Assembly (NCBI GenBank): GCA_026625185.1
Contig: CP113000.1
Coordinates: forward strand, 1,275,622 to 1,307,621
Source: Thermodesulfobacteriota bacterium
Lineage (GTDB): Bacteria > Desulfobacterota > WTBG01 > JAGOGO01
Direction of reading: 5' to 3'
Length of the DNA: 32,000 nt
The notes under the pieces were generated by a model. It had not been told where the DNA came from, made no database searches, and saw only the letters and a list, made by a program, of their open reading frames with translations. The translations under genes were made by a program, and so were the position numbers. Positions 4,824 to 25,058 of this stretch are shown piece after piece (position 1 is the stretch's first letter; the number at the start of each line of letters is the position of its first letter).

Positions 4824-4874
4824 TTAAATCTCCTTTCGCTTTTTGCATTCACTTCTTTTAGGAACCCTCTCTTT

Positions 4875-6362: not shown

Positions 6363-6389
6363 TTGTTTCTTCCTCTCTGCTCAAAAAAC

Positions 6390-6634
6390 TAATTAGTTCA
6401 TCCTGAACAATACGTTCTTTTGATGGAAATTGTTCTTTGAAAACCGAATAGAATTGTGAAATAGGGACCTCCTTGTCTGCCGACAGGCAGGCTATAGTGC
6501 TTTTCCAATGCCTCATGCAAACTGTCCCGGTCAATAAGATTGGCAGCACGCATGAGCTCGTGGTCAGAATCTAATTGATCCGAAAAGATTAACTCAAACA
6601 TCGGAAGTTGCCATTCCGCTATTTTGATTGACAT
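6390..6634 (-). pseudogene. Frameshifted, truncated N-terminal remnant of an IS5-like (DUF772-type) transposase
   Basis: The minus-strand frame gives MSIKIAEWQLPMFELIFSDQLDSDHELMRAANLIDRDSLHEALEKHYSLPVGRQ. This follows the DUF772 N-terminal pattern QLxlFE...L..DHxLr....lIDw..l.e.l...YS..GRp. Homology then appears to continue in another frame (..VPISQFYSVFKEQFPSKERIVQDEL..). No DDE catalytic domain follows. Confidence 0.4.
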
Positions 6635-6782
6635 TTCAATTTATTATATCATGAGATCATCAGAAAAACCGGAGGGTTTTTTGCAATTCTATTCAATTTT
6701 CAAAGAGCCGCTCAGTATTAATAAGGGTTTTAAAGCCTTTTTTCAGGGTGGACTAATTATTAAAAATTTTTTTCTATTTTTA

Positions 6783-9131
6783 CTAATTCTTATCACTTCC
6801 TTCCTCATCCCCTTTAACCTCTTTAAATAGTTTAGATCTAAAGCAATAGGTCAGTGTTGGTACCAGAAAGAGAGCTCCCACCACGTTTGCAGCAAGCAGA
6901 AAGGCAAGCAAAAACCCCATGTCCGCCTGAAACTTCACTTCACTGAAGTACCAAAAAACGATTCCCACTACCACTACAAGTCCGGTTACCACCACTGCCC
7001 GACCGGTGCTGGAAAAACTTCTGATGATGGATTGTTTGATGTCCCCTCCGGTCTCCTGCATTTCATTAATGATCCTGCTCAGCATGTAGATTCCATAGTC
7101 TATTCCTAATCCTGCTCCAATAGAAGCTACCGGTAAAATACTAATGGTCATTCCCATCCCGGCCAAAGCCATATAAGCTGAGGCGATCAGGTTGCCCGTA
7201 ATCAGGGAAATTATGAGGACAATCCCCCTTAGGAATGATCTATAGGGGATGACACAGCAAATGAAGATGATTAAAAGGGCCAGGACCAAGGTGAGCGTAC
7301 TATATTGCGCTACCGTCTCATCGATGCTCGCGGTCACTCCTATGATTCCTCCAGCCAACTTTAATTCCACATGTTCGCTGGGGATAGGGTATCGGGTCAG
7401 GAAATCTTTGCAGACCTGGATCGCATGTCTTATGGTCTCCCCCTGGTGATCCTTAAAATAACAAATGAGATTCCCATGTTGGAAAGGAATGTCGGCCCAA
7501 CGATCAAAGTCTCCCGGTTCACCTTTTACCTCATAGGCCCATAAATAAAAACCACACTCATCCGGAGTGGCGGGAATTTTACTCCATTTGGGATCACCCT
7601 CATGGTATTCCCGGTTAAGCTTTTTTACGATCCCCACCAATGTTTCCGTCCCCCCCACAGAAGGGCACTTACCCTGAAACTCCCGCTCCAGGGCTTCGAT
7701 TGCTCGAAGTACTTCAGGTTCCTTCAAAGCATTCCGGTGCTTGCCTTCAATAATTATGTAAAGGGGATTTGTTCCCGGGAAGTGACGGTTGAGAACGGCA
7801 TCCTGGGAGTTATAAGGAGAATCCGGCCACAAAAGGGGTGAGCCTGGATGAACATCTCCTACCTCAACCCGCATAGACAAGGTAGAGGATGCGACAAAAA
7901 CAACCAGCCAACCCCCCATAACCATCACCATGTTTCTCCTGCCCGCCATAAGCCATTCTCCCCACTTAGTAAGAGCGTTAGTCAGAAAATCTGTCTTTTC
8001 TATCTTTTTGAGGGGGGAGGGTAGATAACAAAAGAGAATGGGAAGCAGCAGACTTACACCAAGAACTGCACCCAAAAGCCAGGTGCCCGAGATCCAACCT
8101 AAAGTCCTCAGTAAAGGAATGGGAACAACGCAAAGGATATAAAGGCCGGCTGCGTCGGTAATGATAGATGCAGCCGAGGGAATGAACATGATATTTATGG
8201 TAGCTATCGAGGCCTCCTCTCTATCTTTAATTGTTTGGCAATATTCTCCGTATCTATCAAGTATCTGCACTCCGTGGCTGATGATCCTGGCCACGATCAC
8301 AAAGGGGATAACCAGTCCCAAGGGGTCGAGATTGAATCTGGCCAAACCCATTAACCCCAGACCCCAGATTGTGTTTATCAAAGCGAGTAATAGGGGCAGG
8401 CAAACAAAAATCCCCCGATATTGATTGAGAAATATGAAAAGGAGGGCAAGTTCGGCCAATACACTTGCCACGAAGATCAGCAGTGATTTTGGATTGTTAT
8501 GATATATCCACCCTATGAGCATGGGCTTTCCCGAGATATAAAACTCTAAATCTTTTCCTGCTACGTCAGTCTGTAATTTTTCAAAGAAATTGAACAATTT
8601 CCGGTAATTGATTTCATCCTTGAAGGTCGCAACAATGAAGGCCATTTTACCATCACCGGAAACCAAAGAACCCCTTATCAACTCATTACTGAAGACACTC
8701 TCCTTTAGTTGCTCTATTTCTTCAGGCCTCTTTGGAACCCCCATTTTATAAAACGGCCTTACATCTACCCCTGCCGGAGTCCCTTCGATATTTTTTACCT
8801 TCGCCCTGCTGAGGGAGATTACCTGGGAAGTTATGGCATCAGGATAAAACATAATCTTTTCCGTTAGCACCTTGAGCTTCTCTAAGAACTGAGGTTGGAA
8901 AATATCCCCTTCCCTTGGCTTAAGGCCAATAATAGTGGTATTAGCACCTCCAAAGAGCTGTTGAAACTTGAGGTGGATCTTTACGTAGGGGTGATTCTGA
9001 GGCAAGGTGCTTTCAAAGGAGGTTGAAAAACTTAAATATCTGATCTGGTAACCGAGGTAAAGGGTAATAAAGAAACTTATGGCCACAAAAAACAAACGGT
9101 GTTTTATAACCAACCTATAAAATTTCACCAT
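6783..9131 (-). CDS. RND-superfamily (MMPL/HpnN-like) inner-membrane exporter
   Basis: The ORF shows two blocks of about six TM helices separated by large periplasmic loops (for example LLIFVASVLAELALLFIFL..., LVLALLIIFICCVIPY...). I moved the start from the track's TTG at 9164 to ATG 9131, which has a perfect SD (TAAGGAGG-N6-ATG). This gives 782 aa. Confidence 0.85.
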   Translation of the reverse strand: MVKFYRLVIKHRLFFVAISFFITLYLGYQIRYLSFSTSFESTLPQNHPYVKIHLKFQQLFGGANTTIIGLKPREGDIFQPQFLEKLKVLTEKIMFYPDAITSQVISLSRAKVKNIEGTPAGVDVRPFYKMGVPKRPEEIEQLKESVFSNELIRGSLVSGDGKMAFIVATFKDEINYRKLFNFFEKLQTDVAGKDLEFYISGKPMLIGWIYHNNPKSLLIFVASVLAELALLFIFLNQYRGIFVCLPLLLALINTIWGLGLMGLARFNLDPLGLVIPFVIVARIISHGVQILDRYGEYCQTIKDREEASIATINIMFIPSAASIITDAAGLYILCVVPIPLLRTLGWISGTWLLGAVLGVSLLLPILFCYLPSPLKKIEKTDFLTNALTKWGEWLMAGRRNMVMVMGGWLVVFVASSTLSMRVEVGDVHPGSPLLWPDSPYNSQDAVLNRHFPGTNPLYIIIEGKHRNALKEPEVLRAIEALEREFQGKCPSVGGTETLVGIVKKLNREYHEGDPKWSKIPATPDECGFYLWAYEVKGEPGDFDRWADIPFQHGNLICYFKDHQGETIRHAIQVCKDFLTRYPIPSEHVELKLAGGIIGVTASIDETVAQYSTLTLVLALLIIFICCVIPYRSFLRGIVLIISLITGNLIASAYMALAGMGMTISILPVASIGAGLGIDYGIYMLSRIINEMQETGGDIKQSIIRSFSSTGRAVVVTGLVVVVGIVFWYFSEVKFQADMGFLLAFLLAANVVGALFLVPTLTYCFRSKLFKEVKGDEEGSDKN

Positions 9132-9219
9132 CTGTGTCCTCCTTAAAATAGCAGTAACGTGCAACCCAATTCAAAATTCCACCTCATTGTCTCACGAAAG
9201 AATAAAAGGCGCGTAACAT

Positions 9220-10248
9220 TTATCTGAAAATGCTACAGGTAAGAGTTTTTGGGTTTACCGTGAGAATTTTACCTGCTTCGCCCACGACAAAAATCTTTTC
9301 GCTGCCGGCTGATGCAATCCCTTCAAACCAATTGACCCCTATTGACTTCGGAAGACACACCTTCGACCAGTGGCCTCTATAATCAGTCATTGAAAGAACT
9401 GTTCCCTTTAACCCTACCACATAAGCACAGCCGTCAATGAACTTGACCTTAAGAAGGCTGGCGCCGGCTCCGCTACCGCTATCTATCTCTTCCCACGTTG
9501 TCCCGCCGTCGAAACTTCTCAACGAATATCCACTCATTCCCACAGCTATTCCCACTCTACCATCATCCGTAAAATCAATGCTGTTGAGGCTCGGGTGGGA
9601 AGCCTCAAGCTTCTCTACGTCTAAAGTCCTCTCTTCCCCCATAACCCTCTTAAAAGTTACCCCTCCATCCTCGGTCAAGATAATGGTGCCGAACTCTCCC
9701 ACAACAAAGCCCTTTTTAGAATCAAGGAATTTCACATCCTTCAGGACCAATTCCTCACCAGTAGACAGAACTTCCCAACTCTTACCACCATCGGCGGTAC
9801 GGAGGATGGTATGCGATTGCCCGACCGCCCATCCTTCCAAACGGTTGAGAAAACAGACCGCGCTGAGGTCATTTCCCGTGCCGCTTATTTGCTTTCTCCA
9901 GGTCTTGCCGCCATCTGAAGTTGAAAGAATTACTCCTTGAGTTCCCACGATCCACCCATAGTCTGCATCCCCAAAAGTAACTGCGGTTAAAAGTTCCTTG
10001 GTGCCGCTTTCTTGTAATTTCCAGGTTTCTCCTTCATCAGGGCTATAGAGAATAGTCCCGTAATATCCCACTGTATACCCGTGCCTCTCCACAAAACAGA
10101 CATCGTACAGGGAATCCCCGATTGAGCTTTGTCTTCCCCTCTCACCTACCTCCGTCTTTTTTGCATTAGGAAGCATTGAATGGCTGATGATTACGAGCCC
10201 CAACAAGAATCCTATGACCATTACCCATTTATGGATCACTCTTGTCAT
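9220..10248 (-). CDS. BNR/Asp-box beta-propeller protein (Ycf48/Hcf136-like), membrane-anchored or secreted
   Basis: The 342-aa ORF has an SD (AAAGGAGAG-N5-ATG) and an N-terminal hydrophobic anchor. It contains repeated SxDxGxTW Asp-box motifs: SPDEGETW, STSDGGKTW, RTADGGKSW, TEDGGVTF and SFDGGTTW. Confidence 0.8.
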   Translation of the reverse strand: MTRVIHKWVMVIGFLLGLVIISHSMLPNAKKTEVGERGRQSSIGDSLYDVCFVERHGYTVGYYGTILYSPDEGETWKLQESGTKELLTAVTFGDADYGWIVGTQGVILSTSDGGKTWRKQISGTGNDLSAVCFLNRLEGWAVGQSHTILRTADGGKSWEVLSTGEELVLKDVKFLDSKKGFVVGEFGTIILTEDGGVTFKRVMGEERTLDVEKLEASHPSLNSIDFTDDGRVGIAVGMSGYSLRSFDGGTTWEEIDSGSGAGASLLKVKFIDGCAYVVGLKGTVLSMTDYRGHWSKVCLPKSIGVNWFEGIASAGSEKIFVVGEAGKILTVNPKTLTCSIFR

Positions 10249-10824: not shown

Positions 10825-12789
10825 ATGAGGTACTCAGAGACAGGGTTTAATTTAGAAATTGACCTATCCCGGGGAAACATTGAGAGGGTTGAAACCGACC
10901 CACGATTAACCGAGCTTTATCTGGGGGGTCTCGGTACTAACGCCAAGATATTATGGGATAGGGTTCCCCCAGAAACTGATCCCTTTTCGCCTGACGCTCC
11001 CCTGATTTTCAGTTCAGGCCTTTTAGGCGGCACAATTGCTCCCGGCGCTAATCGCACCATTATTACTGCTTACTCCCCTCAGACTCTTCTAATGGGATTT
11101 TCAATGATGGGGGGATTTTTTGCGCCGGAAATGAAGTATGCCGGATATGACAAAATCATTTTTCGCGGCAAGTCCCCCGATCTGGTCTATTTGTGGATAA
11201 ATAATGACAAAGTAGAAATACGTGATGCCGCTCATCTCCGTGGTAAAGGCGCTGTTGAAACTCAAGACATTATACGGAAGGAGTTGAATCAGCCGAGCGC
11301 CCATGTGGCTGCTATCGGTCTGGCCGGTGAAAACCGGGTCTATACGGCTTCCATCGAGCAGGGCAGGTCCAGCGCCAGCCGGCTCGGATTAGGAGCTGTG
11401 ATGGGAGACAAAGGGATAAAGGCGATAGCTGTTCGTGGGACAAATGACATCAATATTGCTCGGCCGGATGAATTTATAAAGCTTTGCAACGAAGTGCTGG
11501 AATATATAAAATTCCGAAACGCGAATCCGGTTCCGAACATAATGACCATTTTACAGGGGCTTGGTTCACCTCAAGAGATGGTGGAGACTGATGAGAAATG
11601 GCACACCGAGAATTTCAGTTGGGGAAATTCCCGCATTCGTAGAAAAGACTTCTGGACCAAGGAAATTGAAGAGAGATGGAAGAGTGTTCAATTAGATGTG
11701 CGGAAGCGGTTAATTAGCTGCTACAACTGTCCGATGAAATGCGGGGCAATAATTGCCGTCCCGGGACTTTCGATCTATATGATGAAATGCTTCACAAAAC
11801 TAACCTATACAATGGGAGCTTTAGTAGACGACCTGGATTTTGGTTTTAGAATCTCTCAACGCGCTGCGGAATATGGAGTGGACGGATTTTCAACCCCGCA
11901 AATTATGGCCTTCGGCTTCGAGCTTAAAGAAGCCGGCATTTTGACTGACGCGGATTTTGAAGGATGCCCTTCCGATAACGAGGGAAGATTTTACTGGCTC
12001 CTTGACAGAATTGTCCGGCGGGAAGGGATAGGAGATATCCTGGCTGATGGCACGCATTGGGCGGCCAAAAAGATCGGTAAGGGAGCAGAAGCGTACGTTC
12101 ACAACAATATCAAGAAGCATGAGCAGCTGCCTCTTAAGCTTGGAATGCTGAACCCCGTCTATTACCTGATGTATGCCACCGGCGAGAAAGCAAACATAAC
12201 GCAGATTGAAGGGCAGTTCCCCCAGGCGCCTTTCATGACCATGGAGGAAAGAGAAGCATTTGTAAAGGATTGGTTCCAGGTTCCTGATGAAAAGTTTAAA
12301 CAATATGTTCTGGACTGGGAACCGCGGGGAGAGCACTCAAATCCATTGTACCCGACTGTTGACATGTCCGTTGACATTGTTGACTGGCAAGAAAAAATGC
12401 ATTACATTGATGACGCCCTCGGGGTGTGCGCCGGTTTGTCATCATTTCCTCTGAAGCCTCCTTATCATATGCACAATTACCCCCATTTTATCTCATCAGC
12501 GAGCGGGATTGATATGGATGAAACCGGACTAACGGAAGTATATAATAGGAACCGCAATCTGGTTAGAGCCATTAATGTGAGAAGAGGCATGAGGAGAGCC
12601 GATGAGGATCCGCCCGAAGACCATTGGAAGAAAAGATTCCCAGAGCTTGAAAAAAAGCTCCTGGATGCTTATTACAAATTTAAGGGGTGGGATGATGATG
12701 GTATCCCTACGAAAGAGACATTACAGAAATTGGATCTGGGCTACGTTGCCGAAGACTTAGAACAGAGAGGTATTATAAAAAATGGCTAA
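10825..12789 (+). CDS. bamB: Class II benzoyl-CoA reductase active-site subunit BamB (tungsten bis-pyranopterin enzyme, aldehyde:ferredoxin oxidoreductase family)
   Basis: The 654-aa ORF has an AOR-family N-terminus (MRYSETGFNLEIDLSRGNIERVETDP..LYLGGLGTNAKILWD) and the [4Fe-4S] motif LISCYNCPMKCG. Long stretches such as NNIKKHEQLPLKLGMLNPVYYLMY and GLSSFPLKPPYHMHNYP match what I recall of Geobacter BamB. It is followed by the full bamC-I set. Confidence 0.88.
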   Translation: MRYSETGFNLEIDLSRGNIERVETDPRLTELYLGGLGTNAKILWDRVPPETDPFSPDAPLIFSSGLLGGTIAPGANRTIITAYSPQTLLMGFSMMGGFFAPEMKYAGYDKIIFRGKSPDLVYLWINNDKVEIRDAAHLRGKGAVETQDIIRKELNQPSAHVAAIGLAGENRVYTASIEQGRSSASRLGLGAVMGDKGIKAIAVRGTNDINIARPDEFIKLCNEVLEYIKFRNANPVPNIMTILQGLGSPQEMVETDEKWHTENFSWGNSRIRRKDFWTKEIEERWKSVQLDVRKRLISCYNCPMKCGAIIAVPGLSIYMMKCFTKLTYTMGALVDDLDFGFRISQRAAEYGVDGFSTPQIMAFGFELKEAGILTDADFEGCPSDNEGRFYWLLDRIVRREGIGDILADGTHWAAKKIGKGAEAYVHNNIKKHEQLPLKLGMLNPVYYLMYATGEKANITQIEGQFPQAPFMTMEEREAFVKDWFQVPDEKFKQYVLDWEPRGEHSNPLYPTVDMSVDIVDWQEKMHYIDDALGVCAGLSSFPLKPPYHMHNYPHFISSASGIDMDETGLTEVYNRNRNLVRAINVRRGMRRADEDPPEDHWKKRFPELEKKLLDAYYKFKGWDDDGIPTKETLQKLDLGYVAEDLEQRGIIKNG

Positions 12790-13327
12790 GGTTAAGAAGA
12801 AAATCAAGTCAATCAAGATCGATCTTGATAAATGCAATGGTTGCCGGGCATGTGAGGTGATTTGCTCAGCTTTTCATGCGAGCCCGAAATACAGCGGCGC
12901 CAATCCAGGGAGGGCCCGTATTCGGATGATTCGCGACCCGTTAAGAGACGTATATGTTCCTGTATATGCGGGTGAGTATACCCCTGCCGAATGCATGGGC
13001 AGAGACAAATATGTAATTGACGGAAAAGAATACGATGAGTGTGGCTTTTGCAGAGCTTCCTGCCCATCCAGAGACGCCTTCAAAGACCCCGATTCAGGTC
13101 TTCCTCTAAAATGCGATATGTGTGAAGATGATCCGCCGCAAGAAAAGCCCTTGTGTGTTCAGTGGTGTTTAAATGATGCCCTGATTTACGAAGAAAGGGA
13201 AGAGGAAGTAGAAGAAGAAGAAAGTCCTGAGGCCTTGGAGGTTGGGGTTAAAGCATTGACAGACAAATTTGGATTGGACCAGATAATGGATGCCGTTGCC
13301 CGAATGTCAATGTCAAAGAAAGGCTAA
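12782..13327 (+). CDS. bamC: BamC, poly-[4Fe-4S] ferredoxin-like electron-transfer subunit
   Basis: The 181-aa ORF overlaps the bamB stop by 8 nt (ATGGCTAA), implying translational coupling. Cys clusters include CNGCRACEVIC, CGFCRASCP and CDMCEDD..CVQWC, and the tail is acidic. Confidence 0.8.
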   Translation: MAKVKKKIKSIKIDLDKCNGCRACEVICSAFHASPKYSGANPGRARIRMIRDPLRDVYVPVYAGEYTPAECMGRDKYVIDGKEYDECGFCRASCPSRDAFKDPDSGLPLKCDMCEDDPPQEKPLCVQWCLNDALIYEEREEEVEEEESPEALEVGVKALTDKFGLDQIMDAVARMSMSKKG

Positions 13328-13420: not shown

Positions 13421-14572
13421 GTGGAGATGGTAGCACCCTTACAAGAAGTAATAGATCTAACAAAAAATGCCGGTGGGGAATCCTTCAAATTCTGCTATCA
13501 ATGCGGATTATGCGATGTTGTTTGTCCGTGGAATAGGGTTAGAACCTTTAGTATGCGCAAGTTAGTCCGGCAGGCTGCGTTTGGTTTGACCGAGATAGAA
13601 CATGAAGAGATATGGCGTTGTACCACTTGCGGAAGATGCCCTCAGCAATGCCCCCGTGGAGTAGAACAGATAAAACTTGGGGTATCCTCGCGCAGAATTG
13701 CCTCGGAATACGGAGTTTTTCCTGCTTCGGTCACTCCGGTGCGCGGGGTAAGCGCAAGTCTTGTTGCCGAAGGCAACCCCTTGGGTGAAGAGCGCCAAAA
13801 GCGGGCAAATTGGGCGGAAGGTCTGTCAGTAAAACCGTTTACCGCGGGGATGGAAATTTTGTATTTTCCCGGCTGCTACTTAAGCTATGACCCGAGATTA
13901 AAAAAGGTATCCCGAGCCACTGCCACCATCCTTAAAAAGGCAGGGGTAGATTTTGGGATATTGGGTGCCAAGGAGAACTGTTGTGGAGAAAGCATCCGCA
14001 AGACTGGCAATGAGGAAGTATTCAAACAATTAGCCAGGGAAAACATCAAAACTTTTATTGATAATGGGGTGAAGAAAATTTTGGTTTCTTCTCCTCATTG
14101 CTACCACACTTTCAAAAACGAGTACCCCGAATTCATGGTGAACTTCGAGGTGGTTCATATCGCCCAATACTTATTCGATCTTATTAACGAGGGAAGGCTT
14201 GCGATCACCAAGGAGTATGGGAAGAAAATTACCTATCATGATCCCTGTTACCTGGGCCGACATAACGGCATATTTGACCAACCCCGAGAGGTCTTAAAGA
14301 AGATACCCGGCATAGAACTGAATGAGATGCCGGATTCGCGAAAAAATAGTCTCTGTTGCGGCGGCGGCGGAGGCCGGATTTGGATGGAAACTCCAAAGGG
14401 TGAGCGATTCTCCGACCTCAGAGTAGTGCAAGCTGTTGGCGTCGGAGCTGACGTTTTGGTTACTTCCTGCCCTTACTGCATTTCAATGTTTGAAGACAGC
14501 AAGTTAACTCTGAAGGATAGTGATGCCTTAGAGATTAATGACATCACGGAAATTATCCAGGAAGTGATTTAG
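13421..14572 (+). CDS. bamD: BamD, HdrD-like subunit (2x[4Fe-4S] ferredoxin domain + two CCG domains)
   Basis: The 383-aa ORF contains CYQCGLCDVVCP and CTTCGRCPQQCP motifs. Two CCG-domain motifs follow (GAKENCCGES...SSPHCYH and SLCCGGGGGRIW...TSCPYCISM). The start could be GTG 13421 or ATG 13427. Confidence 0.85.
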   Translation: MEMVAPLQEVIDLTKNAGGESFKFCYQCGLCDVVCPWNRVRTFSMRKLVRQAAFGLTEIEHEEIWRCTTCGRCPQQCPRGVEQIKLGVSSRRIASEYGVFPASVTPVRGVSASLVAEGNPLGEERQKRANWAEGLSVKPFTAGMEILYFPGCYLSYDPRLKKVSRATATILKKAGVDFGILGAKENCCGESIRKTGNEEVFKQLARENIKTFIDNGVKKILVSSPHCYHTFKNEYPEFMVNFEVVHIAQYLFDLINEGRLAITKEYGKKITYHDPCYLGRHNGIFDQPREVLKKIPGIELNEMPDSRKNSLCCGGGGGRIWMETPKGERFSDLRVVQAVGVGADVLVTSCPYCISMFEDSKLTLKDSDALEINDITEIIQEVI

Positions 14573-14590: not shown

Positions 14591-15388
14591 ATGCAAGAAG
14601 CGATTGACGTATCAGCCCTGAAAGGTGTAGTAGCGGGCATGACCTGTGATCGGTTTTCAGACGAGGGATGGGTGAGGACCTCAGTTTACGCGCCTAGTGA
14701 GATGCAACTGAAAATTTATATAAATCAGCAGGAACTGGTCTCCATCCTGTGCACTCCAACCAAGCTGAATTGCCTTGCCTTCGGGTTCCTGTACACCGAG
14801 GGAATCATCTCCGGCATCGGCGACGTGGCGGGCATGCGGGTGTGTGAGGATGACTCGCTGGTCGATGTGAGGCTGAGCAAAACCGAGTTTAAATTGCCGA
14901 CCCTGCGGACACTTACCTCTGGGTGCGGTGGCGGTGCAATTTTCAAAACTGAGGGACAAAGGGTTGATTCTGGTCTTACTGTTACACCAACGGAAGTGCT
15001 GGCGCTGATGAAAAAGCTTCAAGGGCAGATGCAACTCTTTCGGCTTAGCGGCGGCGTGCACACTTCAGCTCTGTCCGATACCAGGAACCTGTTGGTGGTG
15101 GCTGAGGATATCGGACGGCATAACACCTTTGACAAGATTCAGGGCGAATGTCTATTGAGGAAACTATCAACCAAAGATCGACTGGTACTAACCACCGGTC
15201 GCGTTTCGTCCGAGATGTTGCTCAAGGCGGCAAAGATGAAGGTACCGGTTGTTGCAACCCGGCACTCGCCGACGGAGCGAGCTATTTCGCTTGCTCTTGA
15301 TCTGGGTATTGCTTTGGTTGGCTATGCCCATGGAAACAGTCTGTCGGTCTATTCCCACCCGGAACGACTTGGGTGGTCGACAAATTAG
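14591..15388 (+). CDS. fdhD: FdhD-family sulfurtransferase/cofactor-insertion protein, embedded in the bam operon
   Basis: The 265-aa ORF carries the FdhD hallmarks GGVHTSAL, EDIGRHNTFDKIQG and VVATRHSPTERAI. Its Cys loop reads LTSGCGGGAIF, with a single Cys where E. coli-type FdhD has SSCGVCG. Confidence 0.8.
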   Translation: MQEAIDVSALKGVVAGMTCDRFSDEGWVRTSVYAPSEMQLKIYINQQELVSILCTPTKLNCLAFGFLYTEGIISGIGDVAGMRVCEDDSLVDVRLSKTEFKLPTLRTLTSGCGGGAIFKTEGQRVDSGLTVTPTEVLALMKKLQGQMQLFRLSGGVHTSALSDTRNLLVVAEDIGRHNTFDKIQGECLLRKLSTKDRLVLTTGRVSSEMLLKAAKMKVPVVATRHSPTERAISLALDLGIALVGYAHGNSLSVYSHPERLGWSTN

Positions 15389-15454
15389 GTGTATGGCTAA
15401 CCCGACGGACGGCGGATATCACAGAAACAAAAAAACCGGATAAGGTGATAGAAA

Positions 15455-18400
15455 GTGGAAAATGTAATAATGCTCAAAGAAAATATTCAAGAACTTGGTA
15501 AAACTCTTGGAGCCAATAGTGTTGGCGATGTCATGATTATAGGTGGAGGGATCAGCGGTATTCAAGCGTCTCTTGATCTTGCCAATGCGGGTTTTAAGGT
15601 TTACCTGGTTGAGAAAGCGCCGTCCATTGGGGGCCATATGGCCCAGCTTGACAAGACCTTTCCAACCAATGACTGCTCAATGTGAATACTTGCACCCAAA
15701 CTGGTCGAGGTCGGCCGGCATCCCAATGTAGAAGTCCTCACCTATACTGAAGTTGAGAGTGTAGCAGGGGAAGTAGGAAACTTTAAGGTAACCCTGGTTA
15801 AAAAGCCCAGGTATATTCTAGAGGACAAATGCACGGGCTGTACTACCTGTGTAGAGTACTGCCCGGTCAAATACCCTGATCAATATAATCAGGAAATATC
15901 GAAGAATAAGGCAGTCCATGTATATTTCGCTCAGGCGATTCCACTTATCACTTATATAGATGAAAGCTGTCTTTATCTTAAAGAGGGCAAATGTCGTATT
16001 TGCGAAGCAGTATGTAAGAATAAGGCGATAGATTTCAATCAAACGCCGGAAAAGGAAGAAGTAAGTGTAGGGGCGATCATTCTGGCTCCCGGCCTTGAGC
16101 CGTTTGATCCTAAGGTAAGGGAGGAATATCGGTACGGAGAGTTTCAGAACGTGGTAACCAGTATGGACTATGAGCGACTGTTATGCTCCACCGGACCATA
16201 CCAAGGTGAGATACTCCGTGCTTCCGACCTGAAGCATCCCCATAAAATAGCTTGGATTCAATGCGTCGGTTCCAGACAGGTTATCGAGGGCGGTAACAGC
16301 TATTGTTCAGCCGTATGCTGCACGTATACCCAGAAACAGGCGATTTTGACAAAGGATCATGATGCCGGGGCAGAGTGTGTAATATTTCATAATGATATTC
16401 GTTCCTATGGGAAGGATTTTGAGCGATTCTACGAAAGGACCGAGAAACTTCCCGGGGTTCGATTTATCAGGAGCTACACATCAATTGTTAAGGAGAACCC
16501 GGAAACCAAGAATGTCACCATACGGTATTCTACACCCGATGATGGAGTAAAAGAGGAAGAATTCGATATGGTGGTACTGTCCGTCGGATTGAATCCTCCT
16601 GCGGATGTATTGGACCTGGCAAAAAAATTCGGCATTAAACTAAATCCTCACGATTTTTGCAACCTCAATCCTGTCAATCCTATGGAGACCAACAGGCCTG
16701 GGATCTTTGTAAGCGGAGGTTTCCAGGGACCTATAGATATTCCCGAGTCGGTTTTCAGCGCCAGCGGGGCCAGCTCCCAAATTGGTGAGCTTCTTGACTA
16801 CCGGCGAGGAATTCTTTCCAAAGAAAGGATCTATCCGCCGGAAAGGGATGTCTCCAAAGAGGATCCAAGGATAGGGGTCTTTGTGTGTCATTGTGGGGCT
16901 AATATCGGAAGGATAGTCAATGTTCCTGAAACAGTTGAATATTGCAAATCCTTACCCAATGTTGTCTACGCCCAGGAGCAGCTGTTTTCCTGCGCTACTA
17001 ATTCCGCCAAAGAAATAACGGACATGATCAAAGAAAAAGGGCTCAATCGAGTGATTGTCGCCGCCTGCTCGCCCAGGACCCTTGAGCCGCTATTCCGGGA
17101 TACTGTTCGGGAGGCAGGAATCAATCAATACTACTTTGAAATGGCAAACATTAGGGAGCATAACTCCTGGGTCCACTCGAAAGAAAAGGAAGAAGCCTCC
17201 GAAAAGGCACATGATATAATCCGGATGTCGGTAGCGCGAGCCTGCCATTTGGAGCCATTACAGGAATTTGATCTACCGGTCAACAAGGCGGCGTTAGTGG
17301 TTGGAGGAGGGATAGCCGGCATGACTAGTGCTCTCTCCATAGCCAACCAGGGGCATGAGGTTCACCTGCTGGAAAAGGATACAGAGCTTGGGGGAATAGC
17401 ACGGAGAATTCATGATACGCTGGAAGGACTGGATGTTCAGGCGTATTTGCGCGATCTGATAAGAAAGGTATATCAACACCCTTTAATACATGTATATCAT
17501 GATACCACCATCACCGGGGCGACAGGTTATGTGGGAAATTTCGTAACCAAGGTGAAGTCTGACAGAGGAGTCACAGAGATAAAACATGGCGCATCCGTCA
17601 TCGCAATAGGGGTTGATGTATATAAACCTGCCGAATACCTTTATGGAGAAGACGACCGGGTCTTGACCCATCTCGAGTTGGAGGAACAGATCACCAAAGG
17701 AAACGAAAAGGTGATTAACGCAGAAAGTCTCGTGATGATACAATGCGTGGGCTGCAGAAATGAGGAGAGAAATTATTGCAGCAGGCTGTGCTGCAGCGAG
17801 TCGGTCAAAAACGCTTTGAAACTGAAAAAAATAAACCCCAAAATGAATATTTACATCCTCTTTCGGGATATAAGAACATATGGATTCAAAGAGGATTATT
17901 ACCGGGAAGCTGCGGATAAAGATGTAAAGTTCATTCGCTATGAACCGGAAGATCCACCGGAGGTGAAAGCTGTTAAAGATGGCGGTAAGAGCATTCTAAA
18001 GGTTTCCTTGCCGGATTATATTTTAGGGCAGAAGCTTGAAATAGATGCGGATATCATTTCCCTGGCCGCCGCTGTTGTTCCTTCTTCAGCCACCAAGGAG
18101 GTCGCCGGATTATTCAAGGTGACTTTGAGCCCGGATGGCTTCTTCAAAGAAGCCCATGTTAAATTAAGACCGGTTGAGTTTGCTACCGACGGCGTTTACC
18201 TTTGTGGATTGGCCCACTATCCTAAGTTTATGCAGGAAACGATTAACCAGGCTTATGGAGCTGCTGGCCGGGCCTTAACGCTTTTGTCACACGATATCGT
18301 CATCGCCTCCGGCTCGGTTTGCGGGGTGGATGAGAATAGGTGTGTTTCATGCGGGGCATGTATCACCGTTTGCACCTATGGCGCCATAGAGTTTTATGAT

Positions 18401-18583
18401 ACCCCCCAGGGCAGAAAGGCCAGGGTTAACCCGGTTCTCTGCAAAGGAGATGGTCTTTGTAACACGGTGTGTCCGACAGCGGCTATTTCACTAAAGCACT
18501 TTACCGATGAAGAGATCTTGAGCCAAATTGATGCGGCGGTTCCGGAGGAAGAGATCATACAAAAAATTGAGGCTGCCGCCTGA
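15455..18583 (+). CDS. bamE: BamE, HdrA-like flavo-iron-sulfur selenoprotein; in-frame TGA 15683-15685 read as selenocysteine
   Basis: The start GTG 15455 is preceded by AAGGTGA-N6. The frame is open from 15455 to 18583 apart from one TGA. I translated 15686-16150 by hand and found no stop ([23 protein letters not shown]...[12 protein letters not shown]...[15 protein letters not shown]...[12 protein letters not shown]). The track ORFs 15455-15685 and 16151-18583 are in the same frame. The TGA lies in [14 protein letters not shown], a position I recall as Cys or Sec in HdrA. There are two FAD GxGxxG modules ([17 protein letters not shown] and [17 protein letters not shown]). The product is 1042 aa. 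Confidence 0.85.
15701..15718 (+). other. Candidate bacterial SECIS hairpin for the bamE UGA
   Basis: The hairpin begins 15 nt after the UGA. It reads CUGGUC-GAGGUC-GGCCGG, a 6-bp stem with two G.U pairs. The apical loop contains GGUC, the loop sequence I recall from the E. coli fdhF SECIS. Confidence 0.45.
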
Positions 18584-18653: not shown

Positions 18654-19421
18654 ATGATTTCAGGACTCAAATTTAAGCCAAGATTAATAGGTTTCGTATG
18701 CCACTGGTGAGCATACGGGGCTGCTGACCTGGCTGGAGTTTCCAGACTGCAATATACCACTGAAATGAGGCTTATTCGCGTCATGTGCACCGGCAGAGTC
18801 GACTTGGAACATGTACTCCGGGCTTTCTCGAAGGGAGTGGATGGGGTATTTATTGGCGCCTGCCATCTAAATGAATGTAACTATATTACTCATGGCAACT
18901 ACCATGCATTAACCATGGTGAATATATGTAAAAAAATAATGGAAAACATTGGCCTGAATCCTGAAAGATTAAGGATCCGATTCATGTCCGGCGCTGAAGC
19001 AAGCCTTTTTGTAGAATCTGTTAATGAGTTTGTCAAGACGGTGAAGGAAATAGGCCCCCTTGGCAAAGTCGAAGGAATAAACAAGAATGCATTAAAGGCC
19101 AAGCTTGAGGCCGTGACACAGCTAGTCCCCTACATCAGGTTGGTGGAAAGGGAGAGGCTGCGATTACCTTTTAAATCGGAAGAAGAATATAATAATTTTT
19201 TCACCAGTGACGAATTCAACAAGTTATTTAATGAGTTAATTGTAGAAAAATTGGCAATAAGCCAAATAACCTCACTCTTGCGGGAAAGACCCCTTTCGGC
19301 TGGTAAAATCTCTGAATATTTAGGCCTAGCCCCGTCTGAGGTTTCAAGATACATGAATACTTCATCAAGGCAGGGATTAGTCAGGTATGATGAAGGCCGC
19401 AATTGCTTCGCTCTTGCCTAA
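18654..19421 (+). CDS. bamF: BamF, MvhD-like [2Fe-2S] selenoprotein with C-terminal winged-helix-like extension; TGA 18708-18710 read as selenocysteine
   Basis: The start ATG 18654 has a strong SD (AAGGAGG at 18638-18644). It is in frame with the track ORF that starts at 18765. The N-terminus reads MISGLKFKPRLIGFVCHW-U-AYGAADLAGVSRLQYTTEMRLIRVMCTGRVD. This aligns with the MvhD motif FCCNWCSYAGADLAG, with Sec at the last Cys. The product is 255 aa. Confidence 0.82.
18728..18745 (+). other. Candidate bacterial SECIS hairpin for the bamF UGA
   Basis: The hairpin lies 18-35 nt after the UGA. One fold is CUGGA-GUU-UCCAG (18733-18745). An alternative fold pairs CUGG (18729-18732) with CCAG (18742-18745) and leaves a 9-nt loop containing GG and GU. 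Confidence 0.4.
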
Positions 19422-19528: not shown

Positions 19529-19981
19529 ATGAATAAAGGTAGAGTCGATCAAATTATAGAAAAGCATCATGGCGAAGCCAGTTCGCTCATTCAAGTACTA
19601 CTGGAGATTCAGAGTGAGCATCATTGGCTTCCCAAGGAAGCATTAGATAGGATCAGCGAAAAATTACAAGTTCCTTTAACCAGGATACTTTATATAGCCA
19701 CCTTCTATAAAGCCTTTAGTTTAGTTCCTAAAGGACGTCATGAAGTTCACGTTTGTGTTGGTACTGCCTGTCATGTTCGCGGCGCGCCGCGTATCCTTGA
19801 CACGGTGCAAGACCTGACTGGAATTAAACCCGGCGAAACGGACGCAGATTTGAAGTTTAGCCTGGAGACTGTTAATTGCCTCGGCTGCTGTGCTTTAGGA
19901 CCGGTGTTGGAAGTCAATGGAAAGACTTACGGTAACATGGGGCCATCCAAGACCGCAGAGGTGTTAAAAAACTACGAATAA
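19529..19981 (+). CDS. bamG: BamG, NuoE/HoxE-like [2Fe-2S] subunit
   Basis: The 150-aa ORF has thioredoxin-like [2Fe-2S] motifs CVGTACHVRG and CLGCCALGP. Confidence 0.85.
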   Translation: MNKGRVDQIIEKHHGEASSLIQVLLEIQSEHHWLPKEALDRISEKLQVPLTRILYIATFYKAFSLVPKGRHEVHVCVGTACHVRGAPRILDTVQDLTGIKPGETDADLKFSLETVNCLGCCALGPVLEVNGKTYGNMGPSKTAEVLKNYE

Positions 19982-19990
19982 GGAAAAATT

Positions 19991-21919
19991 ATGTTAAGGA
20001 TAAACTCCCCTGAGGAGTTAGAAAAACTCAGACAAGAAATTTTATCCCGGAGTGACCCAAGCAAACCTTGCATTTCAATATGCGCTGGCGCCGGTTGTCT
20101 TGCTTCCGGTGCAGGTGAAGTTATAGCCGCCTTTAAAGCAGAGATTGAAAAGCAAGGCTTAACGACGGATGTGAATACCAAAGGAACCGGGTGCCCTGGA
20201 TTTTGTGAAAGAGGACCCGTTGTGATTATTTATCCTGAGGAGATATGTTATCTCCGGGTAAAGCCTGATGACGTTCCCGAGATTATCTCACAGACTATAA
20301 GGGAAAAAAGGGTTGTCGACCGTCTATTATATGTTGACCCAACCACCGGCGAAAAAGCAATTCATGAATCCGACATCCCCTTTTATAAGAATCAAAAACG
20401 AAATCTTATCAGCTATAATAGTAAGATTGATTCCAAGAGCATTGATGACTATTTGGCGATCGGTGGTTATTCCGCATTAGCTAAAGTCCTTTTCAAGATG
20501 ACCGCCGAGCAAGTATTGGAAGAAGTCAAAAAATCCAACCTGAGAGGAAGGGGGGGTGGCGGCTTTCCCGCAGGGAATAAGTGGGAGGGATCCCGCAATG
20601 CTCCTGAACCAATCAAATATGTGCTCGTCAATGCCGATGAGGGTGACCCTGGGGCATTTATGGATAGAGCTCTCCTTGAAGGAAACCCTCATTCAATCCT
20701 TGAGGGATTGACTATTGGAGCTTACGCTATCGGCTCCCACGAGGGTTATATTTACGTGAGGCAGGAATATCCCTTAGCGGTAGTAAATGTGAACATCGCC
20801 ATCAGGCAGGCCGAGGAATATGGTTTGCTTGGGAAGAACATACTCGGGTCTGGTTTTGATTTCACTGTTAAAGTTCACCAGGGAGCCGGCGCTTTTGTCT
20901 GTGGTGAATCAACGGCTTTGATGACGGCATTGGAAGGCAGGGCAGGAGAGCCCAGACCGAAGTATATCCGCTCCAACATCGTGGGCCTTTGGGGTCGGCC
21001 CACCGTTTTGAATAATGTTGAGACCTGGGCAAATGTGCCGCTTATCATCAATAAGGGCGCAGATTGGTTTACTCAATTTGGAACTGAAAAGAGCAAGGGC
21101 ACGAAGATCTTTTCCCTGGTTGGGAAGATAACCAATACCGGGCTTGTGGAAGTGCCCATGGGCATCACCCTGAGAGATATTATTTACAAGATAGGCGGTG
21201 GAATCCCAGGAGGCAAGAAGTTCAAAGCCGTGCAGACCGGGGGACCGTCCGGAGGATGTATCCCTGAGAAACTGTTAGATTTGGAAGTTGGTTTTGATGA
21301 ACTCACCAAGGCCGGTTCAATGATGGGTTCAGGTGGGATGATCGTAATGGATGAAGATACCTGTATGGTTGACGTCGCCAGGTACTTTCTTAACTTCCTC
21401 ATCGATGAATCGTGCGGCAAATGCACCCCATGCCGTGAAGGCATCAGGCAGATGCTTAAGATTCTCACTAATATCACTAAAGGAAAGGGAAAAGAGGGCG
21501 ACATCGAGCTTTTGGAGGAATTAGCCGAAGTAGCCATCGATGCCTCACTATGTGCTTTAGGGAAGAGTGCCCCTAACCCGCTTCTCAGCACGGTGCGATA
21601 CTTCAGAGATGAGTATGAGGCACACGTCAAGGAGAAAAGGTGCCCGGCTTTATCCTGCAAGGAGCTGATCGCGTACCATATTGACCCGAGTAAGTGCCAG
21701 GCATGTATGATTTGCCTTAAGAAGTGCCCTGCCGACGCTATTGAAGGCGGCAAGAACCGGATCCATGTAATTGACCAGGGAAAATGCACAAAGTGCGGAA
21801 CTTGCATTGAAGTTTGCCCCGCTCGCTTTGGTGCTGTAAATAAGATTTCAGGCCAGCCTGTTCCGGCTCCTATCCCTGAAGATGCAAGAACTTTAGTCAG
21901 AAAGAGTAAAGAACAATGA
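19991..21919 (+). CDS. bamH: BamH, NuoF/HoxF-like FMN- and NAD(P)H-binding iron-sulfur subunit
   Basis: The 642-aa ORF has an N-terminal thioredoxin-like [2Fe-2S] domain (CAGAGCLASG...CPGFCERGP). It also carries the FMN/NADH motifs GRGGGGFPAGNKW and ADEGDPGAF, the [4Fe-4S] motif ESCGKCTPCREG, and a C-terminal 2x[4Fe-4S] ferredoxin (CQACMICLKKCP and CTKCGTCIEVCP). Confidence 0.88.
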   Translation: MLRINSPEELEKLRQEILSRSDPSKPCISICAGAGCLASGAGEVIAAFKAEIEKQGLTTDVNTKGTGCPGFCERGPVVIIYPEEICYLRVKPDDVPEIISQTIREKRVVDRLLYVDPTTGEKAIHESDIPFYKNQKRNLISYNSKIDSKSIDDYLAIGGYSALAKVLFKMTAEQVLEEVKKSNLRGRGGGGFPAGNKWEGSRNAPEPIKYVLVNADEGDPGAFMDRALLEGNPHSILEGLTIGAYAIGSHEGYIYVRQEYPLAVVNVNIAIRQAEEYGLLGKNILGSGFDFTVKVHQGAGAFVCGESTALMTALEGRAGEPRPKYIRSNIVGLWGRPTVLNNVETWANVPLIINKGADWFTQFGTEKSKGTKIFSLVGKITNTGLVEVPMGITLRDIIYKIGGGIPGGKKFKAVQTGGPSGGCIPEKLLDLEVGFDELTKAGSMMGSGGMIVMDEDTCMVDVARYFLNFLIDESCGKCTPCREGIRQMLKILTNITKGKGKEGDIELLEELAEVAIDASLCALGKSAPNPLLSTVRYFRDEYEAHVKEKRCPALSCKELIAYHIDPSKCQACMICLKKCPADAIEGGKNRIHVIDQGKCTKCGTCIEVCPARFGAVNKISGQPVPAPIPEDARTLVRKSKEQ

Positions 21920-22542
21920 GTGAAATCATTTTACAGATAGATGGAAAAGAAGTCAAAGCAAAGGAAGGGATGACCGTTTTGGAGGCAGCCCAAAGCGCGG
22001 GGATATCCATACCCACACTCTGTCACCATGAAAAATTGGAACCCTATGGGGGTTGCCGACTTTGTATCGTAGAAGTAGAAGTTCGCGGCTGGACACAGCT
22101 CGTTGTTTCCTGTGTTTACCTGGCGGCAAAAAATTTGATTGTAAGAACTAGATCTGAGAAGGTAGATAGAATTCGCAAAATGATCTTAGAACTATTGCTG
22201 GCTCATGCCCCGGATGCTTTCGAATTGCAGGATTTGGCTAAAGAGTATGGAGCAGACAAAGACCGTTTTGAAAAAGAGTCCTCATTTTGCATTCATTGTG
22301 GTCTATGTGTAAGATATTGTGCTGAGGTCAAGAAGAAGAATGCGGTTGGATTTGTTGACAGAGGAACAAGGAAAGAGATCAGTTTCATTCCAGGGATAGC
22401 ATCTAAGGAATGCTGGAACTGCAAGGAATGTTTTCCGCTTTGCCCTACAGAGGCCTTACAAGCAGCTTTCGTTTTAACCAAAGCGCTCATTTCCTCCCCA
22501 CCCTCCTCCGAACTTGTGTCAGTGGGAATAGGCAAAGATTAA
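21916..22542 (+). CDS. bamI: BamI, NuoG N-terminal-like [2Fe-2S]/[4Fe-4S] subunit
   Basis: The 208-aa ORF has a start that overlaps the bamH stop (ATGA). It begins with a plant-type [2Fe-2S] region (IPTLCHHEKLEPYGGCRLCIVEV), followed by CIHCGLCVRYC and CWNCKECFPLCP. Confidence 0.8.
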   Translation: MSEIILQIDGKEVKAKEGMTVLEAAQSAGISIPTLCHHEKLEPYGGCRLCIVEVEVRGWTQLVVSCVYLAAKNLIVRTRSEKVDRIRKMILELLLAHAPDAFELQDLAKEYGADKDRFEKESSFCIHCGLCVRYCAEVKKKNAVGFVDRGTRKEISFIPGIASKECWNCKECFPLCPTEALQAAFVLTKALISSPPSSELVSVGIGKD

Positions 22543-22733: not shown

Positions 22734-23507
22734 ATGCAGAAGGTAACGTGTGAAAAAATGTTTGATAATCAGGTATGGAAGATTATTCTTAATGATCCCA
22801 AGGGGAATGTGGTTGATTCCATTATGTTAAAGGGATTTCAGGAGGTGCTTGATGAGGTTTCAAAAGAAAAGCATTGCAAATTAATTATTTTTCAGGGCGC
22901 CGGAAGTCATTTTTCCTTTGGAGTGAGTGTGGAGGAACATACCGAAAAACTGGCCGCAGGAATGCTGGCAAGCTTTCACGACTTATTTATTAGGTTAACT
23001 GATTTAGGGATACCGGTTTGCTCTCTGATCTCCGGACAGTGTCTTGGTGGGGGAGTAGAGATCGCCACTTTCGCTCATTTTGTTTTCGCTGATGAGACTG
23101 CCCGGATTGGTCAGTCAGAAGTCGCTCTTGCAGTTTTTGCTCCCCCGGCATCAGTGATATTGCCCCTTAAAGTCGGCCATATGCATGCAGAAGATATTCT
23201 CCTTACCGGTAGAAGCCTTACTGCACAGGAAGCCAAGCAAATGGGACTTTTAAACGAGGTTTATCCTGATAAGAGTACGATGGAACAAAAGGTGAACGAA
23301 TGGATTCAGCAGCAGATTCTTCCTAAGAGTGCTTTCGCCTTAAAGGTGGCCACAAAACAAGTCCGCAAACGCTTCAATGAACGATTAAAGGAAGATTTAC
23401 GGTTTTACGAATCAGTTTATATGAATGAGCTCATGAAGTCTCATGATGGTAAGGAAGGTTTGAACGCGTTTTTAGAGAAAAGGAAACCGGTTTGGACCGA
23501 TGATTAA
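22734..23507 (+). CDS. Crotonase-family enzyme, most likely cyclohexa-1,5-diene-1-carbonyl-CoA hydratase (Dch/BamR-like)
   Basis: The 257-aa ORF has a strong SD (AGGAGGG-N6-ATG). Its motifs GAGSHFSFGVSVEEH, GQCLGGGVEIA, LAVFAPPAS and MNELMKSHDGKEGLNAFLEKRKPVW match my recollection of Thauera Dch (GPHFSFGASVDEH, GQCLGGGLE, LGVFAPAAS, ...EGLKAFLEKR). It lies directly downstream of the bam genes. Confidence 0.65.
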   Translation: MQKVTCEKMFDNQVWKIILNDPKGNVVDSIMLKGFQEVLDEVSKEKHCKLIIFQGAGSHFSFGVSVEEHTEKLAAGMLASFHDLFIRLTDLGIPVCSLISGQCLGGGVEIATFAHFVFADETARIGQSEVALAVFAPPASVILPLKVGHMHAEDILLTGRSLTAQEAKQMGLLNEVYPDKSTMEQKVNEWIQQQILPKSAFALKVATKQVRKRFNERLKEDLRFYESVYMNELMKSHDGKEGLNAFLEKRKPVWTDD

Positions 23508-23906: not shown

Positions 23907-25058
23907 TTATTTTAGGTTTCCCAGAATTTCTCGGCCAATAATGATTTTCTCTACCTCCTTTGTCCCTTCATAAATTTCCAAGACTTTGGCAGCCCGGTAA
24001 AATCGTTCAATGTCCTGATCATTGAAATACCCATAACCCCCATGGAGCTGCAGCGACTCATCCACCATTTCTACCGCAACATGACAGGCATAAAGTTTGG
24101 CCATCGCGGTCAGTTTCGTGTCGGGCCGGCCCTGGTCAAGTAACCACGCTGCCTTGTAAACCATGTTGCGGGCAGTCTCAACCTTGGTTGCCATCTCAGC
24201 TATTTTAAACTGAGTAACCTGAAAGGCTCCCAGGGGCTGGCCAAACTGTTTCCGCTCTTTGACGTGTTTGATTGCCATGTCCAGCGCCCCTTGAGCAAGT
24301 CCCACGGCATGTCCAGCCACATAGGCCCGGGATCGGTCAAAAAAATTCATCAGTTGAATAAATCCGTTTCCTTCCTTACCAATGAGATTTTCTTGGGGAA
24401 CCCGGACATCGGTGAAATAGATGCTGGCGGTGTCCGAACACCTTATCCCCATTTTCCCTTCCATCCGGTCGGCTTCGTAGCCTTTGCGATTAGTTTCCAG
24501 CAGAATAATGCTGTGGCGGCCGGTCTTGGATTTCTCTTCCGGATTGGTAAGGCAATAGACGAGCATATGGGTTCCTTTGGTGCCATTGCTGATCATGACT
24601 TTGCTGCCGTTAATAACATAGTCATTGCCGTCTTTTACCGCCGTGGTTGAAGCAGCAGCGGTGTCACTTCCGGCATCGGGTTCGGTGATGGCAAAACCAA
24701 AGATCGTGTTACCCTCAAAAATGGGGGGCAAAAATTTCTTTTTCTGTTCCTCGGTTCCGTAAAGAAGCAGCTCTTCGACGCCAAAACTAATGGTGCAAAG
24801 CTGCTGGCCAATGCCGGGGTCTACCCTCCAAAACTCCTCTAAAACCATCGCCTGTTCCAGATACCCGAACCCAGGCCCGCCGTATTCTTCAGGAATAAAA
24901 AGACCGACCAGACCGAGTTCCTTTGCTTTCTTGATTATCTCTTCGGGAAAGGTCTCGTTTAAATCATACTCACGGGCAACATCGGTAAACTCCCCAACCG
25001 CAAAATCCCGTGCTGCTTTTTTGATGTCTCTTTGTTCATTAGTTAAATCAAAATTCAT
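23907..25058 (-). CDS. Acyl-CoA dehydrogenase (short/medium-chain ACAD type; substrate not assignable)
   Basis: The 383-aa ORF has an SD (AAGGAGG-N7-ATG). ACAD motifs include FAITEPDAGSD, GSKVMISNG and QLHGGYGY, with the catalytic Glu in EIYEGTKEV. Confidence 0.88.
   Translation of the reverse strand: MNFDLTNEQRDIKKAARDFAVGEFTDVAREYDLNETFPEEIIKKAKELGLVGLFIPEEYGGPGFGYLEQAMVLEEFWRVDPGIGQQLCTISFGVEELLLYGTEEQKKKFLPPIFEGNTIFGFAITEPDAGSDTAAASTTAVKDGNDYVINGSKVMISNGTKGTHMLVYCLTNPEEKSKTGRHSIILLETNRKGYEADRMEGKMGIRCSDTASIYFTDVRVPQENLIGKEGNGFIQLMNFFDRSRAYVAGHAVGLAQGALDMAIKHVKERKQFGQPLGAFQVTQFKIAEMATKVETARNMVYKAAWLLDQGRPDTKLTAMAKLYACHVAVEMVDESLQLHGGYGYFNDQDIERFYRAAKVLEIYEGTKEVEKIIIGREILGNLK

Follow-up and report, generated by a model that had tools for sequence, protein, structure and literature searches.

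Does an in-frame TGA within a conserved coding region mark a broken gene, a split protein or a codon for an amino acid? The question is raised by an HdrA-like gene in a stretch of 32,000 nucleotides (contig CP113000.1 of assembly GCA_026625185.1, positions 1,275,622 to 1,307,621; hereafter, the window) from a Thermodesulfobacteriota bacterium. The interrupted region, at 15455-18583 on the forward strand, lies in a gene cluster for a class II benzoyl-CoA reductase. It is very probably one gene, bamE, which codes for an HdrA-like bifurcating subunit and whose UGA at codon 77 is decoded as selenocysteine (Sec) by means of a hairpin at 15701-15718. The observations on which this reading is built are a single open reading frame (ORF), the homology of the UGA column, the conservation of the UGA itself and a constraint on the hairpin at the RNA level.

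Translation of the forward frame 15455-18583 yields 1043 codons, and the sole internal stop, besides the terminal TGA, is the TGA at 15683-15685, which falls at codon 77 in the context NDCSM-UGA-ILAPK. The mechanical ORF list reports 15455-15685 and 16151-18583 in the same frame, and it resumes only at 16151 since no start-type codon follows the TGA before that position. An earlier reading of the window, made from the sequence only, had held that these two ORFs share a frame and that the 465 nucleotides between them (15686-16150) are stop-free and HdrA-like. Translation bears this out, and the intervening segment codes for two ferredoxin-type cysteine (Cys) motifs. That reading had also expected standard gene callers to annotate two fragments or a pseudogene, and the public callers (JGI, NCBI) do break bamE into pieces of 71 and 810 residues. 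Regarding the start of the gene, a Shine-Dalgarno-like AAGGTGAT (15442-15449, forward strand), read directly from the sequence, lies 5 nucleotides upstream of the GTG, and the N-termini of homologues (MENVIELK, VDNVIELK) align with VENVIMLK of bamE. On these two grounds, the GTG at 15455 and the resulting length of 1042 residues are taken as right, rather than the ATG at 15470 called by JGI.

Pfam domains are present on both sides of the UGA. By Pfam and the alignment with HdrA, the protein opens with a TrxR-like domain 1 containing the bifurcating-FAD (flavin adenine dinucleotide) site. An inserted ferredoxin domain comes next, then an HdrA N-terminal-like domain and a second TrxR-like half, and the protein closes with a C-terminal ferredoxin domain of the 2x[4Fe-4S] kind. 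Searched with phmmer, BamE matches solved HdrA chains with E-values of about 1e-166 (3e-166 for 5ODC), in a permuted order: residues 21-437 correspond to the TrxR-like and inserted-ferredoxin part of HdrA, and residues 458-598 to its N-terminal domain. Related sequences match residues 1-447 straight across the UGA at 80-89% identity in tblastn searches. Furthermore, Lys294 of BamE (289 if counted from the ATG at 15470) falls in the alignment at position 409 of the 5ODC chain, and Lys409 of HdrA is the residue which we take to be the lysine at flavin N5. Its architecture, GxGxxG motif, lysine and CxxC/U motif identify BamE, at the level of sequence, as an HdrA-type electron-bifurcating flavoprotein.

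What residue should be expected at the interrupted position? The UGA codon (15683-15685, forward strand) falls at position 197 of HdrA and at Cys62 of Geobacter BamE. The TGC codon of Cys74 (15674-15676, forward strand), the first residue of a C-x-x-U redox motif, is the counterpart of HdrA Cys194 and Geobacter BamE Cys59, and is invariant in 81 loci. An ungapped alignment sets the UGA column on Cys197 of the HdrA of 5ODC, within the motif DCSIC-ILAPK. The column also aligns to residue 197 of the Methanococcus maripaludis HdrA chain 9sfi_A, which is written as a non-standard X; in 9SFI and 9T1S, this residue is Sec197, bonded to a cysteine between FAD and cluster A3 (PMC13518236). The match with Cys62 of the Cys59-Cys62 pair of Geobacter BamE is drawn from the motif and from the numbering offset, which is consistent with the position of the lysine (Lys280 there, Lys294 here). 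The earlier claim that HdrA homologues carry Cys or Sec at this column is thus upheld by Cys197 in 5ODC, X197 (Sec197) in 9SFI, Cys in 30 related loci and TGA in 130.

The TGA itself was found in all 83 loci first sampled and then in 130 of 160 related loci, the remaining 30 having Cys, a Sec-type share which is drawn from similarity-ranked samples and is biased towards relatives of the window. All 80 best-matching loci of a one-genome-per-species collection carry TGA, though the query had Cys there, and of 80 loci retrieved from metagenomes with a Cys-type protein as the query, 50 have TGA and 30 have Cys (21 TGC, 9 TGT). Two JGI metagenome assemblies of this organism, independent of each other (samples 3300028923 and 3300019861; loci L001 and L002), both contain the identical TGA. 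A sequencing error, which the sequence-only reading had named as a finding that would overturn it, is effectively excluded by these two assemblies and by the 130 of 160 related loci. Among database proteins, full-length relatives (1012-1053 residues, 75-80% identical) carry Cys in the motif NDCSM-C-IESPKF. The closest relatives (82-87% identical) are mostly only 931-964 residues long, as happens where gene callers stop at a UGA.

The next evidence concerns the hairpin downstream of the UGA. At 15701-15718 on the forward strand, the transcript can form a 7-bp stem, CUGGUCG/CGGCCGG, with an apical loop AGGU (GGUC motif), which occupies codons +6 to +11 (L-V-E-V-G-R) and constitutes the core of a candidate bacterial selenocysteine insertion sequence (SECIS). 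The hairpin begins 15 nucleotides past the UGA, as had been noticed earlier, and the 6-bp stem with a GAGGUC loop then described is equivalent to the 7-bp stem and AGGU loop predicted here. In the model of bacterial SECIS elements, the apical loop lies about 16-37 nucleotides after the UGA and presents G/U; here, the AGGU loop begins 22 nucleotides past it. The local fold of 26 nucleotides has an energy of -10.2 kcal/mol (z = -2.6), and 3 of 200 shuffled sequences were as good. The element resembles the SECIS of Escherichia coli fdhF, an intragenic hairpin directly past the UGA whose apical loop likewise presents GGUC, with G23/U24 in its own numbering. It differs in stem sequence and in position: counted from the U of the UGA, GGU occupies +27 to +29 in the window and +22 to +24 in fdhF.

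Comparison among loci reveals how closely these nucleotides are held. In 81 UGA-type loci, codons +6 to +10 (CTG GTC GAG GTC GGC, for L-V-E-V-G) are represented by one codon each, with zero synonymous variation; at codon +11, 76 loci have CGG and 5 have CGT. All the other degenerate codons from -20 to +30 vary synonymously in the same loci, with 0.17-1.93 bits of codon entropy. The stem pairs were surveyed in 131 UGA-type loci, which amount to 96 distinct sequences: they are kept in 95-96 of the 96, and the loop AGGU in 95. The C19-G36 pair is replaced by a compensatory A19-U36 in three distinct sequences, where CGU at codon +11 occurs with AUG at codon +6, and is a C-U mismatch in one; U23-G32 becomes U-A in four, and the remaining stem pairs are invariant. 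In the 30 Cys-type loci, by contrast, the same positions encode F-V-E-C-N-R, no hairpin is possible and synonymous variation is normal. The hairpin is therefore constrained as RNA only downstream of a UGA, which is the behaviour of a bacterial SECIS, and the comparison supports the interpretation of 15701-15718 as such an element under RNA-level selection. Together with the evidence on the start and the homology of the column, the constrained hairpin argues for the single selenoprotein of 1042 residues which had been proposed.

A second gene of the same operon repeats the pattern. The mechanical ORF of bamF meets the Pfam FlpD profile only from profile position 28. Its extension upstream to an ATG at 18654, with GGAGG ahead of it, crosses one TGA and restores the motif CxWU-AYGAADLAG. 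So extended, bamF (18654-19421, forward strand) is predicted to code for a 255-residue MvhD/FlpD-like [2Fe-2S] subunit with a C-terminal helix-turn-helix domain, and would be the second selenoprotein gene of the operon; gene callers start it downstream and report 212-218 residues instead of 255. The UGA lies at codon 19 (18708-18710, forward strand), in the context FVCHW-UGA-AYGAADLAG, and is followed by a putative SECIS core at 18733-18745 on the same strand, CUGGA-GUU-UCCAG, with a 5-bp stem and a GUU loop. Genome loci reaching bamF contain the motif 68 times, always with TGA and never with Cys, and TGA is present in 61 of 63 informative metagenome loci. Moreover, codons +8 to +12 (GCU GGA GUU UCC AGA) show almost no synonymous variation over 123 loci. 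A scan of the window with TGA as a sense codon retained only bamF besides bamE, and the other candidates were rejected as upstream leaders or overlapping stops. As two independent sites with a UGA plus a hairpin occur in one operon, Sec decoding in this organism is very likely. Two BamF-like motifs with TGA (FVCQW-UGA-GYGAADLAG) are found at positions 3627 and 7545 of one related locus (L032, DYEO01000048.1), which consequently has two copies of an MvhD-like selenoprotein gene.

Several other readings of the bamE UGA have to be weighed against Sec. The two fragments of 71 and 810 residues given by gene callers would agree with bamE being a pseudogene, whether the TGA is a genuine nonsense mutation or an error of sequencing or assembly. 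However, the same TGA recurs in both independent assemblies and in the 130 related loci, which come from many species, the frame is intact with 80-89% amino acid identity on either side, and a pseudogene would not hold a hairpin invariant at synonymous sites, so that the probability of this explanation is practically negligible. Translation might instead end at the UGA and the downstream part be made separately, two polypeptides then forming a split BamE, and other organisms do have HdrA genes that are split or in tandem (PMC9012536; PMC1794560). Yet 15686-16150 has no in-frame start codon while it codes for conserved HdrA sequence and the inserted ferredoxin domain, and what is conserved downstream of the UGA is the hairpin and not a ribosome-binding site. 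The break, within the conserved CxxC/U motif, would also leave the GxGxxG Rossmann strand on one polypeptide and the remainder of the FAD domain on the other, and we consider a split protein extremely improbable. A reassignment of TGA in the genetic code was rejected, because TGA terminates 4 of the 24 genes of the window.

The reading of the UGA without selenium, through near-cognate insertion of Cys or tryptophan or through recoding independent of SelB, would make the hairpin a generic stimulator. It is favoured by the fact that the Sec machinery was not demonstrated in about 42 kb of the source genome or in the loci retrieved. Against it, every homologue has Cys or Sec at the column, and Sec has been observed there by experiment in the HdrA of M. 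maripaludis. The hairpin has the spacing, and an apical loop with G/U, as expected for a bacterial SECIS bound by SelB, and the UGA plus hairpin of bamF matches the Sec19 modelled experimentally in Geobacter BamF. UGA is, furthermore, an ordinary stop elsewhere in the window, and selenium-free read-through thus appears very unlikely.

Some results also weigh against the decoding of the bamE UGA as Sec. None of selA, selB, selC and selD, nor any tRNA gene, was found in about 42 kb of the source genome (the window and about 10 kb to the left of it), and ARAGORN found no tRNA-Sec in any related locus retrieved. The incorporation of selenium in this organism is a prediction. RNA folding, one of the checks suggested by the sequence-only reading, gave a divided answer: the hairpin is predicted, but the fold of the 63 nucleotides after the UGA is no better than shuffled sequences (z = 0.05), and folds of 40-63 nucleotides after both UGAs behave likewise. 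Folding of a single sequence is weak evidence for the hairpin, and the case consequently rests on the comparative evidence. There, the stem hardly varies, so that only two pairs show classical covariation. Rfam gave no match to the hairpin of bamE or to that of bamF at the gathering score over the whole window, and none at E <= 10 over 15600-15800; this reflects the coverage of bacterial SECIS elements in Rfam and not the absence of a SECIS function.

How, then, would the UGA be decoded, and what would Sec do in BamE? Bacterial Sec decoding relies on SelB, which carries GTP and Sec-tRNA(Sec) and binds the SECIS. With the UGA of bamE in the A site, we infer that SelB with its GTP and Sec-tRNA(Sec) would bind the 15701-15718 hairpin at its apical part and would deliver Sec77 in competition with release factor 2. 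Cys74-x-x-Sec77 would then sit beside the bifurcating FAD, where Geobacter has the Cys59-Cys62 disulfide and M. maripaludis the Cys-Sec197 selenenylsulfide. There, the two residues would most likely cycle between the selenol/thiol and the selenenylsulfide, as a relay from the flavin to the neighbouring [4Fe-4S] cluster, on the low-potential branch feeding BamC and BamB. The Geobacter disulfide has been proposed to take the low-potential electron of the flavin semiquinone on to cluster E3, in the direction of BamC/BamB, with its exact role left unresolved (bioRxiv 10.64898/2026.04.10.717634). Similarly, a thiol-selenol shuttle between FAD and A3 has been proposed for Cys-Sec197 in M. maripaludis, its exact role being again left unresolved (PMC13518236).

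The selenoproteins in question are not new as such. HdrA and FrhD/MvhD have been recognised as bacterial selenoprotein families since about 2005-2006 (PMC1794560), and in Desulfococcus multivorans bamE (dmul_C24500/10) is among five listed genes with a UGA and a SECIS, in a genome which has selA, selB and selD (PMC5109826). As far as the published listing allows a comparison, that gene codes for the corresponding subunit of an enzyme of this class and is split by an in-frame UGA with a SECIS after it; the organism is another one, as the window comes from an uncultured bacterium found in JGI metagenomes. It is this species which provides the precedent, and not Geobacter, whose BamE the sequence-only reading had cited as a reported selenoprotein: in the structure obtained by cryogenic electron microscopy for the 1-MDa class II benzoyl-CoA reductase of Geobacter metallireducens, Sec19 is in BamF, and BamE has Cys59/Cys62 and Lys280 (bioRxiv 10.64898/2026.04.10.717634). 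The Geobacter selenoproteome lists FrhD and not HdrA (PMC1794560), and the 2026 preprint and Zhang et al. 2006 are the sources for assigning Geobacter BamE to the Cys type. The two BamE proteins share the double-HdrA architecture, the bifurcating FAD with its conserved lysine (Lys280 there, Lys294 here) and a CxxC-type pair by the FAD, and Sec19 is found in BamF in both systems. They differ in the pair itself, a Cys59-Cys62 disulfide in Geobacter and Cys74-x-x-Sec77, presumably a selenenylsulfide, in the window, whose cluster also differs in having an fdhD-like gene between bamD and bamE.

The archaeal HdrA proteins offer a further term of comparison. In the M. maripaludis protein (9SFI/9T1S), the residue equivalent to the UGA column, 197, stands within the shared motif DC(A/S)M-U-ILAPK, but the protein is archaeal, has about 658 residues and contains only one HdrA unit, which starts with the N-terminal domain. 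In archaea, SECIS elements are located in untranslated regions, whereas the putative SECIS of the window is inside the coding sequence right after the UGA, in the bacterial style. A Cys-Sec selenenylsulfide between FAD and an FeS cluster is seen in the map of M. maripaludis HdrA (PMC13518236). The HdrA of 5ODC (Methanothermococcus thermolithotrophicus / Methanothermobacter wolfeii) shares the motif DCSIC-ILAPK and differs in having Cys197, and not Sec, as the counterpart of the window's Sec; according to the published description, this Cys197 coordinates the N-terminal [4Fe-4S] cluster of the partner HdrA (PMC9012536).

A midpoint-rooted neighbour-joining tree, a quick distance tree of 395 residues without the motif, resolved the 130 UGA-type and 30 Cys-type BamE sequences as reciprocally monophyletic. 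No form intermediate between the two types was seen in the 160 loci. From the UGA column onwards, the Cys-type clade reads C-IESPKFVECNR instead, with an extra invariant Cys nine residues past CxxC. The Sec type includes a cultured relative, Desulfocucumis palustris NAW-5 (L025). Sec-type bamE with the same SECIS core also occurs in metagenome-assembled genomes labelled Spirochaetes, Leptospirales, Bathyarchaeota, Chloroflexi and Bacillota, in addition to Desulfobacterota (e.g. L041, L062, L072), and this spread over phylum labels could be due to horizontal transfer of the cluster or to binning errors. One Cys-type relative in NCBI (P0017) is 1291 residues long and has an FlpD (MvhD) Pfam domain besides the BamE domains, which suggests either a BamE-BamF fusion or a read-through annotation spanning both genes.

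Since UGA-containing bamE and HdrA/MvhD selenoproteins were already described, the current understanding is not overturned. The present analysis adds how far the Sec type extends and that it is monophyletic; it also shows that the SECIS of this type hardly varies across phylum labels, and it maps Sec exactly onto a residue pair which is currently of interest for the mechanism. Sec77 falls at the pair which two structural studies of 2026 single out as a proposed redox relay by the bifurcating flavin, and the clean Sec-type and Cys-type clades of BamE provide a natural comparison for the relay question. Surveys of anaerobic aromatic degradation based on called proteins under-count or mis-size BamE and BamF, because gene callers split or shorten these genes. 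A broader account joining these elements is put forward only tentatively, at somewhat less than even chances: the bifurcation core would contain two Sec residues (BamE Sec77 and BamF Sec19), a Cys-Sec selenenylsulfide would relay the electron of lowest potential, and the Sec type would be the prevalent natural form, monophyletic under several phylum labels, with a near-invariant SECIS of 18 nucleotides freezing six codons. If this were true, the natural Sec and Cys clades of one enzyme would constitute a direct test of the part played by selenium in flavin-based electron bifurcation.

The assignment of the gene to bamE derives from its surroundings, all the cluster genes being on the forward strand. 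Upstream of bamE, Pfam identifies bamB (10825-12789) as coding for an AOR-family protein, bamC (12782-13327) for a poly-ferredoxin and bamD (13421-14572) for an HdrD-like CCG protein; between bamD and bamE is inserted the fdhD-like gene (14591-15388), which reaches the cut-off of NCBIfam TIGR00129. Downstream of bamF, Pfam and NCBIfam recognise bamG (19529-19981, NuoE-like), bamH (19991-21919, NuoF-like) and bamI (21916-22542, NuoG N-terminal-like). BamB matches G. metallireducens BamB (4Z3W_A) over its full length with 1120 bits, against 207 bits for the next AOR, and BamC matches G. metallireducens BamC (4Z3W_E) with 258 bits. These matches and the gene order indicate a class II, tungsten-dependent (ATP-independent) benzoyl-CoA reductase in which the HdrA-like gene is bamE. 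On sequence grounds, then, bamBCD-fdhD-bamEFGHI is a class II benzoyl-CoA reductase cluster, co-linear with one extra gene, the fdhD-like one. A neighbouring hydratase is closest to cyclohexa-1,5-dienecarbonyl-CoA hydratase, with 214 bits, below the curated cut-off of 292, and lends indirect support to the predicted benzoyl-CoA dearomatising activity.

Among related loci, 28 of the 112 of Sec type and 3 of the 25 of Cys type likewise have the fdhD-like gene between bamD and bamE, and the sulfurtransferase which it encodes may act in the maturation of the tungsten cofactor of BamB. At 25201-27183 on the reverse strand, the window encodes a DsrMK/HdrED-like protein of 660 residues, in which two CCG domains and 4Fe-4S motifs accompany a membrane domain of the nitrate-reductase-gamma-like kind. 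It adjoins an acyl-CoA dehydrogenase and the hydratase (23907-25058, reverse strand, and 22734-23507, forward strand), and it could be the membrane outlet for high-potential electrons. Upstream of the bam cluster, at 3507-10248 on the reverse strand, lies a set of DUF1329 (LolA-like), DUF1302, MMPL/RND-type transporter and BNR/YCF48-like genes, which may form an envelope or transport module unrelated to the bamE finding.

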